Assembly (NCBI GenBank): GCA_965232515.1
Contig: CBDDPY010000002.1
Location: 2,464,001-2,528,000 of the forward strand
From: Alphaproteobacteria bacterium
GTDB taxonomy: Bacteria > Pseudomonadota > Alphaproteobacteria > GCA-2731375
Direction: 5' to 3'
DNA length: 64,000 nt
The position numbers and the translations under genes were made by a program. Each line of letters starts with the position of its first letter. The stretch's first letter is position 1. A model generated the notes under the pieces. That model worked only from the letters and a program-made list of their open reading frames with translations. It did not search any database and had not been told where the DNA came from. Below, one piece after another: positions 2,794 to 6,726 of the stretch.

Positions 2794-4407
2794 TCAGTTG
2801 AAGGCGCTGTTCGGCATGCCCAACAGATAGCCCTGCGCGTAGTCGACGCCCAGCTTGTTGACGAACTGCAACTGTTCCTTGGTCTCGATGCATTCGGCGA
2901 TGGTCTGCATGCGCAGATCCTTGCTGACCCCAACCATGGCCTTCAGGATCGCCGCGTCACGCGGCCGGTTCAGCACCTTCTGCACATAGACGCCATCGAT
3001 CTTCACGAAATCGACCGCCAATGCCTGCAGATACTGGAACGAGGCCGCGCCGGCGCCGAAATCGTCGAGGCAGACCCGGTGGCCGTCCCGACGGAAGTCC
3101 TGGATGATGTTGTTGGCCTGCACCAGATCGTCGATCTTGCTGGTCTCGGTCACCTCCAGCAGCAGGTTCCGGCGTAACTGCCCGATCCGCGCTAGCATGG
3201 CCCGCAGGTTGGTGATGAAGACCTCGTTGACCAGCGAGCGGCCCGACAGGTTGACCGAAAGCCGCAGAGCCGTGCCGTGAGCGTCCTGCTCTTGCATCAG
3301 CCGGATCACGCGCGCGCAGACCGCCAGATCCAGGTCGTGGATCAGGCCGACGTCCTCGGCAAACGTGATGACCTTCAGCGTGTCTTTCTCATCGGGAAAA
3401 CGCGACAACACCTCGTAATGGTGCACATTGCCGTCGCGCAGGCTGTAGATGCCCTGGAAAACGAACTGGAACTCGCTACGCGCCAATGTCGTCTTCAGCG
3501 CGTTCACGCGATCCTTGGTGTTGCTTAAAAGCTGATCCAGGCCGTCGGAGAGCGACTTGATCGAGAATTCCGACGTGGTGTCCGCGAACTGATTGATGGC
3601 GTAGACCAGGATCTGACCGGCGTCGACGTCGCTGATCGCTTCTTCCGAGGTCAGGTCGAGCGTGCTGCCCTGAAAGCCGATGCCGTCGCCCGAGGGGTCG
3701 ATGCTTTTCGACAGTTGATGGATGGTCTGCGAGACCTCATCCAGATCGACCGAGCTGTCGTGGACAAATCCGTATTTCTCGTCGTCCAGGCGGCCGACGG
3801 AGTCGCCGCCATACGATTCCGATCTCAGATAGGCGCCGATGTCGGCGAGCATATCGCTTCGCGTCGCGTCGTCGACCTGGCTCGACAGCCGGTCGAGGCC
3901 GTCAAGCTGCAGCAGCGTCAGCTTGGTGTCGAGGCGCTAGTCGGCGGCGACCCGGGCTAATTCGCCGGCGATCTGCGCAAAATCTTCCTTGCCCAGCGTG
4001 CCCGTTTCGGGATCGCGGACCGCCTCGGCGTTGCGTTCGATATTGGGCGACTTGGCGACCGACAGGGTGACGAAATAGCGCTCGCTGTCGGCCGGCAACC
4101 GGCAGGCCCCGAGCCAGACCGCGACGCCGGTCGCCGCCATGTGCACGATGGTCGGCGCCAGCCGGTGCTGGCGGCCGAGCCGCGCGATCAGGTGCTTCAG
4201 GAAGTGACTGTCCTGGACGCCGACCATCTCAAGCAGCGAGATGCCGATCAGGCCCTCGGCCTCGCAGTCGGCAAGCAGTCGGCTGGCGCCGGACGCGAAC
4301 GTGATCGTCAACCGTTGGTCGAGCTCCAGCAGCAGGTCCGCCGCCGCGAAAGAGAACCCGACAAATCGATTGCGTTCGCGCTGAAGTCCGACCCCCAGCT
4401 CACCCAT
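2794..4407 (-). pseudogene. EAL-domain protein (PAS-like N-terminus, degenerate GGDEF-like middle, EAL) interrupted by an in-frame TAG at 3937-3939
   Basis: ORFs 3937..4407 and 2794..3852 share a frame. Reading through the stop gives ...RVAAD*RLDTKLTLLQLDGLDRLSSQVDDATRSDMLADIG.... EAL motifs EVLSR, SVNLS, LEVTE, LDDFGAG, VKIDG, IAECIE, AQGY are present. Confidence 0.75.
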
Positions 4408-4639: not shown

Positions 4640-4843
4640 ATGAACCACACAACCTCTCTAAACATGAGAAAATCTTCGTTTCACGATATCCTTGAGGGGG
4701 CAGTGCAGCAATTCGCCGTCTGGCGCGAACGCGCCCGCGAGCGCAAGCTTCTGGCGCAATTGTCGGATCGCGAGCTGCGGGACATTCGCCTGAACCGCCA
4801 GCAGGCCGAGATAGAAGCCGGCAAGCCGTTCTGGAAACCCTGA
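4640..4843 (+). CDS. DUF1127 (YjiS-like) small protein
   Basis: Arg-rich WRERARERKLLAQLSDRELRDI...EAGKPFWK signature. Confidence 0.9.
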   Translation: MNHTTSLNMRKSSFHDILEGAVQQFAVWRERARERKLLAQLSDRELRDIRLNRQQAEIEAGKPFWKP

Positions 4844-5000
4844 CCGCCAAACTTGGCCACGTCGACGTCTCTTGCAGTTTCGACCGCAGCGGCGCACCAT
4901 TATCGCTATCCGTTGCGAACAAAGCGCAGCCAAGCGTCGAGTTTGACGCAAACAAGGAGTGAAGAAGCGGTCTGCTCGGCGCCCTGATAGGGGAACGCAG

Positions 5001-5432
5001 ATGTACGTAGACTCCATTCTGAAGCACAAGGGCCAGGACGTCGTGAGCGCCGGCCCCACGGATGAAATCGTCGAGACGGCCCGGCTGCTTAACCGGCACC
5101 GGATCGGCGCGGTTGTCGTGCGCGGTGCCGACGGCCAGGTGGTCGGGATCCTGTCGGAGCGCGACATCGTCCGCGGTGTCGCCGAAAAAGGTCCGGCCTG
5201 CCTCTCGCTCAAGGTGGCCGATCTCATGACCCGAGAGGTCGTGAGCTGCCGCCCGAACGACAGCATCGACGACATCATGGCGCTGATGACCGAACGGCGT
5301 ATCCGGCATTTGCCGGTGATGCAGGACGGCACGGTTATCGGCGTGATCTCTATCGGCGACGTGGTCAAACGGCGCATCGCCGAGATCGAGTCGGAGGCCT
5401 CCTCCCTGCGGGAGTATATCGCCACGGGCTGA
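5001..5432 (+). CDS. Tandem CBS-domain protein
   Basis: MYVDSILKHKG, IGAVVV, GILSERDIVR, RIRHLPV, GVISIGDVVK. Start moved to ATG 5001. Confidence 0.92.
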   Translation: MYVDSILKHKGQDVVSAGPTDEIVETARLLNRHRIGAVVVRGADGQVVGILSERDIVRGVAEKGPACLSLKVADLMTREVVSCRPNDSIDDIMALMTERRIRHLPVMQDGTVIGVISIGDVVKRRIAEIESEASSLREYIATG

Positions 5433-5529: not shown

Positions 5530-5545
5530 TGTGAACGCGATCACA
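5530..5545. promoter_or_regulatory. CRP-type binding site
   Basis: Perfect TGTGA-ACGCGA-TCACA, about 60 bp upstream of the small ORF at 5603. Confidence 0.7.
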
Positions 5546-5602: not shown

Positions 5603-5707
5603 ATGTCGTCACTGCAGGGACGCAACCGCAAAACCTTGTTCGCGCTCGTGGGATCGCTGTGGGTCGCCTCCGTCGGCGGCCTCATCTGCTTGTTCGTTTT
5701 CGCCTGA
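5603..5707 (+). CDS. 34-aa single-TM peptide (paralog of 6211..6318)
   Basis: MSSLQGRNRKTLFALVGSLWVASVGGLICLFVFA, with GGGAGA SD upstream and a CRP box upstream. Confidence 0.65.
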   Translation: MSSLQGRNRKTLFALVGSLWVASVGGLICLFVFA

Positions 5708-5748
5708 ACGATCCGGATGTCAGCCGCCCGCGCGGCGATGGACCGTGC

Positions 5749-5931
5749 TCAGGCGAACCAATCGAACAGCGGCAGCAACACGCCGATCAGGGCGCCCCAA
5801 CCGACAATTGAGGCCACAATCCATACCAACATGGCGCGGCGCATCGAGATCTGGGCGTCATGCGCCCGGCTGGCTCGCGACGCCGTCGGCAGGGACGGCC
5901 GATCAATCGAGATCTGAGAGGAGTTCGTAAT
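5749..5931 (-). CDS. Small single-TM protein (31-60 aa; start ATG 5844 or ATT 5931)
   Basis: C-terminus MRRAMLVWIVASIVGWGALIGVLLPLFDWFA. SD GGGAG lies 7 nt before ATT at 5931; CtrA-type box further upstream. Confidence 0.5.
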   Translation of the reverse strand: MTNSSQISIDRPSLPTASRASRAHDAQISMRRAMLVWIVASIVGWGALIGVLLPLFDWFA

Positions 5932-5977
5932 CGTCTCTCTCCCACGTCTGGTTCCGACAATTGTCGCCCGGCGAGCC

Positions 5978-5992
5978 TTAACGGAACGTAAA
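5978..5992 (-). promoter_or_regulatory. CtrA-type box
   Basis: TTAA-CGGAACG-TAAA (minus strand TTTA-N7-TTAA), the same variant as at gcrA. Confidence 0.55.
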
Positions 5993-6113
5993 GACCGCGA
6001 CGGCCACAAAGGCGGACCGGCAGGCCGTGGATTGTCTCAGATTGAGAATGGCGCATCGGCGGCTGTTCCAAATCAGGTCAATCTTGCGCGACCCGAGACA
6101 GCACATCTTTTCC

Positions 6114-6160
6114 TAAACCGTTGAAATAATTGCGAAACGCAAGTTGGCATATAACCTGCT
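6114..6160 (+). promoter_or_regulatory. IHF-like site plus sigma54 (-24/-12) promoter
   Basis: TTGGCATATAACCTGCT with GG 6146-47, N10, GC 6158-59. Upstream TAAACCGTTGAAA (reverse TTTCAA-N4-TTA, close to the IHF consensus WATCAA-N4-TTR). Confidence 0.6.
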
Positions 6161-6210
6161 TCAACATCTGCGTTGTTTACTAGTAACCGCGTAATCGGAC
6201 GGAGGGCGTC

Positions 6211-6318
6211 TTGCGCAATCTTTCTTCCACCCAACGAGGCATGCTTATCGCCGTATTCAGCGCGCTTTGGCTGATGTCGTGCACGGGTCTCGTCTACTGG
6301 TCCTATCTGGTCCACTAA
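6211..6318 (+). CDS. 35-aa single-TM peptide (paralog of 5603..5707)
   Basis: SD GGAGGG at 6201-6206, TTG start: MRNLSSTQRGMLIAVFSALWLMSCTGLVYWSYLVH-TAA. Below the ORF-track cutoff. Confidence 0.65.
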   Translation: MRNLSSTQRGMLIAVFSALWLMSCTGLVYWSYLVH

Positions 6319-6430: not shown

Positions 6431-6525
6431 TCCACGAAAAGGCAACGCGCCGGGCACGGCGCCGCGCAAAGCTTCGGACCGGGATCGCCATCAATTGCCC
6501 CGGTCGGCGGAGCTGCCGAATGGAG
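6431..6525 (+). ncRNA. c-di-GMP-I (GEMM-I) riboswitch
   Basis: TCCACGAAAA-GGCAAC-GCGCCG-GGCA-CGGCGC-CGC-GCAAA-GCTTCG-GACCGGG...CCCGGTC-GG-CGGAGC-TGCCGAATGGAG. Conserved GGCAA / GCAAAGC / TGCCGA core with Vc2-like spacing and paired P1, P2 and P3. Confidence 0.82.
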
Positions 6526-6531
6526 ACGACA

Positions 6532-6726
6532 ATGGAAATTAGTCCCAACAATCCCAGTCCTTCCCAGGGCCTGAAGCTTCCCGCCGCCACCGAGCAACGT
6601 ACGGCCGAAGCGCCGGAACGTAATGCCGAACGCGACCGCCGAGAGGTGGACGAGACCTCGCGCGAGCGCATTCAGCGCTCGGACGCCGGTCCCGGCGTCG
6701 GCCGCCGGGTCGATTTCGAGGTCTGA
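6532..6726 (+). CDS. Small hydrophilic protein with a YjfB/'putative motility protein'-like C-terminal G-x-G-x-x-V-D motif
   Basis: MEISPNNPSPSQG...AGPGVGRRVDFEV. SD GGAG at 6522-25 overlaps riboswitch P1. Confidence 0.7.
   Translation: MEISPNNPSPSQGLKLPAATEQRTAEAPERNAERDRREVDETSRERIQRSDAGPGVGRRVDFEV

Follow-up and report, generated by a model that had tools for sequence, protein, structure and literature searches.

The regulatory membrane microproteins of enterobacteria include MgtS, MgrB, AcrZ and PmrR, and the small hydrophobic peptides classed as type I toxins include TisB, Ibs, Ldr and Hok. AzuC is described as a small amphipathic protein (PMC8915982), and CydZ is described as a conserved small protein of cyanide-insensitive oxidase operons, DUF2474 (PF10617) being a single-helix family encoded after cydB (PMC4325964, PMC5322542). 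The subject here is a pair of short open reading frames (ORFs), P1 and P2, in a 64,000-nt stretch of the genome of an alphaproteobacterium of GTDB lineage GCA-2731375. This stretch (G000:C2:2464001-2528000) is called the window, and positions given without a contig name are counted within it; the genome itself (G000) has 7.39 Mb and 65.5% GC. Judged by their sequences, P1 and P2 are very probably real, coding and paralogous, and the family to which they belong appears to be an undescribed, lineage-restricted one from a marine alphaproteobacterial order. Its members are like MgtS, MgrB, AcrZ, PmrR and AzuC in being shorter than 50 amino acids (aa), in having a stand-alone gene behind a global-regulator site, and in being thought to bind a larger membrane or membrane-associated protein. 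They are unlike the enterobacterial microproteins in that there is no sequence similarity, in that they come from a marine alphaproteobacterial order, and in that three differently wired paralogs are found in one genome. The YncL, YniD-like and DUF4027 clusters, membrane microproteins of 31-41 aa, belong to the same broad class; the ESM Atlas scores to them (0.82-0.84) are below the level counted as more than a lead.

The two ORFs share one build: a basic N-terminus (+3 in P1, +2 in P2) is followed by a single hydrophobic helix that carries the family motif LW-x2-S-x3-L. An earlier note on this DNA, made from the sequence alone, had located both ORFs, credited each with a good Shine-Dalgarno sequence and taken them for paralogs. 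Re-reading of the sequence gives the same coordinates, translations and ribosome-binding sites (Table 1), and the paralogy is borne out within a conserved family by a third locus, by homologs in a sister genus and by profiles from which P1 and P2 were left out. Aligned without gaps at offset 0, P1 and P2 are identical at 10 positions and have a local score of 48 under BLOSUM62. This similarity beats composition-matched shuffles (mean 18.6, standard deviation 4.2; a score of 48 reached in 0 of 5000) and also architecture-matched shuffles, in which the polar N-terminus and the hydrophobic segment were kept apart (mean 22.0, standard deviation 5.0; 2 of 5000). The pair alone is not significant at genome scale, because neither ORF retrieved the other at E<=10 in genome-wide searches. 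The best non-self match of both is one common third locus, P3, which is 1.66 Mb away and convergent to a Glu/Leu/Phe/Val dehydrogenase gene. A P3 ortholog is present in G001, the sole other genome of the genus (81% complete), and DNA-level matches to that genome comprise only the P3 locus and a DUF1127 gene near P1.

The six-frame segments of the genome, 136,472 in all, were searched with profiles. When P1 and P2 were both left out of the profile, they ranked third (E 0.031) and second (E 1.2e-4), respectively, and the next match had an E value of 1.6; across the leave-out profiles, E ranged from 4.1e-5 to 1.2e-4 for P2 and from 0.016 to 0.031 for P1. A profile made solely from other genera gave E 4.9e-5 for P3 and E 0.003 for P2. 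P1 is tied to the P3 group (E 0.0074 in the genome, E 0.005 against G001, 78% DNA identity over 63 nt), and its membership of the family is suggested by these P3-type sequences together with the conserved operator described below. P2 is 29-42% identical to its paralogs, and its N-terminus (MRN...QRG) aligns in register with that of the sister genus (MRN...RQK). The DNA similarity among P1, P2 and P3 ends at the ORF borders. Extra motif matches elsewhere in the genome (for example at C2:1613001 and C2:4452987) were dismissed as alternative frames of longer open frames.

A four-sequence profile retrieved small ORFs in the sister genus, g6, and with an enlarged profile 21 of the order's 33 genomes had a match at E<=0.01. 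On inspection, an ORF of 35-37 aa with an ATG start and a Shine-Dalgarno sequence (such as MRNSITNRQKLGIAIWSLLWLVSAAALLQLYLELNA) is found in 17 of the 21 g6 genomes and in the single genome of genus g2. One g6 match, in G016, was left out of this count: it lies inside a 243-aa frame and has no Trp. Five of the eight genera of the order (g3, g4, g5, g7 and g8) gave no match to the enlarged profile in their nine genomes. Of 400 alphaproteobacterial genomes from outside the order, 4 gave a match at E<=0.003, where chance expects 1.2, and all four matches are partial and lie inside frames of 121-400 aa. A search for related loci with the sister-genus alignment gave 11 loci, each matching the query over 35-36 residues. 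At the protein level, a HMMER search of 1.84 billion protein representatives gave nine matches at E<=0.001, eight of them family members of 34-69 aa; these include a 34-aa protein (P0004) one residue off P1, a 40-aa protein of the P3 type and a more distant 35-aa member, and no P2-like sequence is among them. Searching with a degenerate DNA motif of the P2 core led to a single stretch of metagenome, in which no listed ORF of at least 25 aa is family-like. The earlier note had not recognised the family, and Pfam and NCBIfam likewise have no model for it: neither gave a match for P1 or P2, and P3 had one sub-threshold match, to a cyanobacterial transmembrane domain. Separately, a partial ORF at a g6 contig end (G047:C464:15-71, minus strand; MSQLNSHQRGLLITIFGVL...) is similar to the N-terminus of P2 at 10 of 19 positions and was left out of the family, having Val at the position of the invariant Trp.

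What the family conserves can be read from an alignment of 22 sequences. Counted from a Trp that is present in all 22, there is Leu at -1 (21/22), Ser or Thr at +3 (22/22), Leu at +7 (21/22) and Tyr or Phe at +11 (21/22). All five positions are kept in P1; P2 departs from the pattern only at +11, where it has Ser, and has its Tyr at +12. Family ORFs are 33-37 aa long and comprise a basic N-terminus and one helix, the stop codon coming 12-16 residues past the invariant Trp, and their conservation shows a helical period (p 0.04). The g6 orthologs are under purifying selection: among the 14 of exactly 36 codons (3 of the 17 were excluded for length), the mean proportions of synonymous and nonsynonymous differences are 0.62 (pS) and 0.26 (pN), the median ratio of nonsynonymous to synonymous change (dN/dS) is 0.23, and third codon positions vary most (entropy 0.80, 0.47 and 1.05 at first, second and third positions). 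In G000, GC content at third codon positions (GC3) is 0.85 in P1, 0.71 in P2 and 0.82 in P3, compared with 0.83-0.84 in adjoining genes; in P2 it is higher than at first and second positions (GC1 and GC2).

The earlier note had also proposed that P1 is under CRP control and P2 under sigma54 control, and the two proposals fared differently. For P1 there is now strong comparative support. The perfect CRP-type palindrome ahead of it is the sole match in the window, with 0.01 expected. An alignment of the 190 nt upstream of 15 g6 genes has a conserved GTGA-N6-TCAC followed about 21 nt on by a CATAT(T) block, and GTGA-N6-TCAC ends 60-65 nt before the ATG in 16 of 17 g6 loci and 60 nt before it in the g2 locus, which is similar to its distance in P1 (57 nt). 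The g6 loci together span 49.5 kb, and all 18 occurrences of the palindrome in them are upstream of the peptide gene. G000 has 15 perfect 16-mers where 2.2 are expected; on a crude map, genes take up 66% of the chromosome, and none of the 15 falls within them. Because the palindrome is conserved upstream of P1 and of the g6 and g2 loci, P1 appears to keep the ancestral CRP-type promoter of the family. If CATAT(T), and in P1 the CACCTT in register with it, is the -10 element, then the operator would be centred near -41.5, the class II arrangement. Control of P1 by a CRP-family protein is thus probable. GTGA-N6-TCAC was not found before P2, P3 or the G001 ortholog of P3. About 60-90 nt upstream of P3 there is an AT-rich block (TTAACC.TAATTTAGTTCAGGAATGTCAC; L002:1395-1430 and its equivalent in L005) common to G000 and the same-genus genome, which is possibly a regulatory region specific to P3.

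The genome has at least 16 Crp-family helix-turn-helix matches above the cut-off. A Crp-family gene (G000:C2:128715-129431, minus strand; cNMP_binding and HTH_Crp_2 domains) has a perfect TGTGA-N6-TCACA of its own 16 nt upstream (129447-129462), with a divergent FAD-linked oxidase gene beyond the site. Its product is 95% identical in the same-genus genome and has no close ortholog in g6 at E<=1e-30. The recognition helix reads RESINK, which we take to resemble the RE..R helix of E. coli CRP. In Rhodospirillum centenum, a cGMP-binding CRP homolog, CgrA, is described as protecting TGTGA-N6-TCACA (PMC4681086).

As for P2, a sigma54-like element does lie upstream of it, as the sole match in the window (0.23 expected), and rpoN is present at G000:C2:3875938. 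Sigma54-type sites number 37 in the genome against 24.7 expected; this excess is entirely of the TTGC type (25 against 8.5), whereas the CTGC type, P2's form, is not enriched (12 against 16.2 expected, 7 of the 12 outside crude genes). No enhancer-like inverted repeat was found upstream of the element, and no P2 ortholog was found with which the element could be compared. A perfect palindrome (TTGCGAAACGCAA, 6130-6142) lies 2 nt upstream of the element and was flagged as a weak minus-strand terminator. Seven of the TTGC-type sites, TGGCAY-N5-TTGCT elements at a spacing of about 1.1 kb, are in G000:C2:7106717-7114280; most of them precede a crude gene by about 100-200 nt, and they look like a tandem array of sigma54-driven genes.

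Table 1. Features at and around P1 and P2, with the third paralog. Positions are those of the window unless a contig is given.
Feature	Position	Strand	Description
P1	5603-5707	+	ATG start; 34 aa; MSSLQGRNRKTLFALVGSLWVASVGGLICLFVFA; read from sequence and translation
P2	6211-6318	+	TTG start; 35 aa; MRNLSSTQRGMLIAVFSALWLMSCTGLVYWSYLVH; read from sequence and translation
P3	G000:C2:4127588-4127686		33 aa from GTG (or 40 aa from an upstream ATG); MELPKARRKLQIAFWLALWLASVSGLIFLYMTG
Shine-Dalgarno sequence of P1	5590-5594	+	GGGAG; 8 nt ahead of the start; read from sequence
Shine-Dalgarno sequence of P2	6201-6205	+	GGAGG; 5 nt ahead of the TTG; read from sequence
CRP-type palindrome	5530-5545	strandless	perfect TGTGA-N6-TCACA; TGTGAACGCGATCACA; ends 57 nt before the P1 start
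Putative weak -10 element of P1	5567-5572	+	CACCTT; 21 nt after the palindrome; in register with the g6 CATAT(T)
Sigma54-like -24/-12 element	6145-6160	+	TGGCAT-N5-CTGCT; 50 nt before the P2 start
EAL-domain gene	2794-3852	-	cyclic di-GMP (c-di-GMP) phosphodiesterase-type
DUF1127 small protein gene	4640-4843	+	67 aa; just upstream of the CBS-pair gene
CBS-pair gene	4959-5432	+	precedes P1
c-di-GMP-I riboswitch	6431-6520	+	113 nt past the P2 stop
68-aa ORF	6520-6726	+	no Pfam match; the riboswitch ends on its ATG

The reading that we favour, with moderate confidence, is that P1 and P2 are condition-specific single-pass membrane microproteins of one unnamed family that bind a larger membrane protein. 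They would be two of three paralogs in a family of 33-37-residue single-pass inner-membrane microproteins, in which the N-terminus is short and basic, should face the cytoplasm according to the positive-inside rule, and leads into one helix of about 22 residues that carries the Trp, Ser/Thr +3, Leu +7 and Tyr/Phe +11, with a C-terminal tail of 2-4 residues. Each gene would be a stand-alone transcription unit, and the ancestral promoter would have had a GTGA-N6-TCAC operator in the placement of class II activator dependence. Since P1 has kept that operator, its activator would most likely be a Crp-family regulator that binds a cyclic nucleotide. P2 and P3 would have lost the operator and gained other upstream regions, P2's resembling a sigma54 -24/-12 element. 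The conserved residues would pack against a transmembrane helix of the larger protein and modulate it, and the paralogs would couple this modulation to different signals. Signal-dependent binding of a larger membrane protein by a single-pass peptide, through its Trp, Ser and Leu positions, is the most likely mechanism, and it is put forward tentatively. The earlier note's idea that the two peptides are interchangeable regulators of one membrane target is a conjecture. Co-folding of P1 as a homodimer with the family alignment gave a score of 0.04, which counts neither way.

Several results weigh against this reading. First, no partner protein is known for the putative membrane binding, and the helical-face signal is modest at its p of 0.04. 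Second, no ortholog of P1 or P2 was found in the 81% complete G001, and P1 is not among the 15 best matches of the other-genera-only profile (the weakest of which has an E value of 15; the search cut-off was E 100). Third, sigma54 control of P2 is plausible but unsupported, statistically or comparatively. Fourth, genomic context gives no functional clue, because the neighbourhood is conserved within g6 and not between genera. Lastly, contigs from RNA libraries of a near-identical organism cover P1 (5508-5690) and P2 (5856-6502, 6170-6395 and 6075-6340) at a depth of 2-7, but these could be DNA carry-over because flanking genes are covered too, and they give neither strand nor transcript ends; a poly-A run yielded no reads on the region. 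The same organism differs from G000 by one synonymous change in P1 (5614 G>A) and by none in P2, a count that carries little weight because divergence is about 1%.

The g6 neighbourhood also bears on a different explanation, in which the peptides are made constitutively and serve a conserved membrane complex as small subunits, like those of the CydX type, or as assembly factors, and the paralogs are isoforms for different growth states. In g6, the peptide gene sits between a divergent MlaC-like gene, beyond which is a major facilitator superfamily (MFS) transporter gene, and a convergent cluster of lolD-like, lolCE-like and proS genes. Its single copy at a fixed position in 17 of the 21 genomes, the purifying selection on it and the conserved intramembrane residues all fit a subunit, as does a weak profile likeness to the oxidase microprotein family CydZ/DUF2474. 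Yet with divergent and convergent neighbours the g6 gene is not in an operon, the genes in G000 stand alone, and nowhere is a family gene in an operon with a complex. The g6 gene order is not kept in G000, where the ortholog of the g6 permease (69% identity, C2:1455967) has no peptide alongside. A subunit of a conserved complex also sits uneasily with a family that was not found, with the profile used, in five of the eight genera of the order, and with an activator-type operator that points to conditional expression. We consider this explanation unlikely.

The peptides might instead be type I toxin-like and perturb the membrane, held in check by antisense RNAs. Like TisB, Ibs, Ldr and Hok, they are small, hydrophobic and single-helix, they are multi-copy in this genome (two copies 500 nt apart), and they have a narrow taxonomic range and no operon partners; moreover, a weak terminator-like hairpin lies on the minus strand (6142-6130) just upstream of P2. 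Unlike those toxins, they have no evident antisense RNA or occlusion of the mRNA: both Shine-Dalgarno sequences are strong and unoccluded, the predicted P2 transcript is not unusually structured (z +0.96), and there is no Rfam small RNA match, although no search aimed at antisense transcription was made. The history of the g6 gene is likewise unlike that of a toxin, for it is single-copy, syntenic and vertically conserved under the selection described above, its activator-dependent promoter is conserved, and the short distance from its stop codon to a convergent housekeeping gene would barely accommodate an antitoxin gene. A toxin role is accordingly rated as improbable. Between P1 and P2 there is also a 31-aa hydrophobic ORF on the minus strand (MRRAMLVWIVASIVGWGALIGVLLPLFDWFA, 5749-5844) that has no obvious Shine-Dalgarno sequence and no homolog among the 33 genomes of the order.

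The likeness to CydZ/DUF2474 deserves closer comparison. Peptides of both kinds are about 30-45 aa long, have one helix behind a basic N-terminus, and share a local motif, (L/I)W-x-(A)(S/G)V-x2-L. Comparison of the family with 13 DUF2474 peptides by hhalign gave a score of 21.0 and a probability of 58% over 15 columns around LW-x-(A)(S/G)V, and none of 300 column shuffles reached this score (maximum 19.1). The two differ in the placement of Trp, which in the present family is mid-helix, with a shorter helix after it, and in DUF2474 is at the helix start. Against PF10617 (cut-off 26.6 bits), none of the three peptides P1, P2 and P3 gave a match, even with E values up to 10 allowed. The genome does have a true DUF2474 peptide, of 29.9 bits, following cydB (G000:C2:3267688-3267774), whereas P1, P2, P3 and all g6 genes are away from cydB. 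In the order as a whole, cydB (PF02322) was found in 2 of 33 genomes and in 0 of the 21 g6 genomes, 17 of which have the peptide. The family is therefore not a subunit of bd oxidase, and identity with CydZ was rejected; the family and CydZ/DUF2474 may share a remote ancestor. A speculative extension, which we hold as a long shot, is that the family is a CydZ-like offshoot that left a bd oxidase operon and now supplies some other conserved membrane machine with a swap-in transmembrane subunit under cyclic-nucleotide control. The three paralogs here would then be under a Crp-family protein, sigma54 and an unknown regulator, and one target would integrate carbon/second-messenger, nitrogen and other signals at the protein level.

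It is also conceivable that P2, and perhaps P1 as well, arose by duplication and is decaying or has never been expressed, with only P3 and the g6 gene being functional. P2 has a TTG start, the lowest GC3 of the three and no ortholog or database representative that could be found, and by an estimate from composition a 35-codon open frame is not rare at 65.5% GC. Decay would nevertheless have to have spared a good deal: at 29-42% identity, P2 keeps its start, a near-ideal Shine-Dalgarno sequence, its length, the family-invariant residues and the position of the stop, its GC3 still exceeds GC1 and GC2, and it is the second-best match in the whole genome to the profile from other genera. The chance that P2 is a relic seems slight. 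That the peptides are detached CydZ homologs serving cytochrome bd or the cyanide-insensitive oxidase, as the hhalign score and the presence of cydB with its DUF2474 peptide in G000 might suggest, is very improbable and is already contradicted for g6, where no cydB was found; the unmatched PF10617, the distance of every family gene from cydB and the different position of Trp also speak against it.

Around P1 and P2, the remaining features of the window have a flavour of their own. The EAL-domain gene, the CBS-pair gene and the riboswitch together make up a c-di-GMP theme. With RF01051, whose gathering score is 35, the riboswitch reaches 41.3 bits; the model of the GGC variant, with a gathering score of 59, gives it 36.6 bits. 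The GGAG ahead of the ATG of the 68-aa ORF sits in the 3' arm of the aptamer; beyond them is a convergent glutaminase gene. There are six c-di-GMP-I riboswitches in the genome, another of which (G000:C2:1923480-1923566, plus strand) is followed after about 170 nt by an MlaC-like paralog (1923734-1924258); an FtsX-type permease paralog is close by. The DUF1127 gene has two similar DNA stretches in the same-genus genome.

The immediate impact of these findings is moderate, because a role for the peptides can so far only be proposed and they come from a lineage that does not serve as a model. Annotation systematically overlooks membrane microproteins; P2 itself is not among the representatives found in 1.84 billion. 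Functional knowledge of such proteins comes almost entirely from enterobacteria. A family is now defined for a marine alphaproteobacterial order, with sequence hallmarks, evidence of purifying selection and a tractable regulatory handle in the conserved CRP-type operator, which keeps a fixed distance from the start codon, and its three members in this genome offer a natural case of paralogs with what appear to be rewired promoters.

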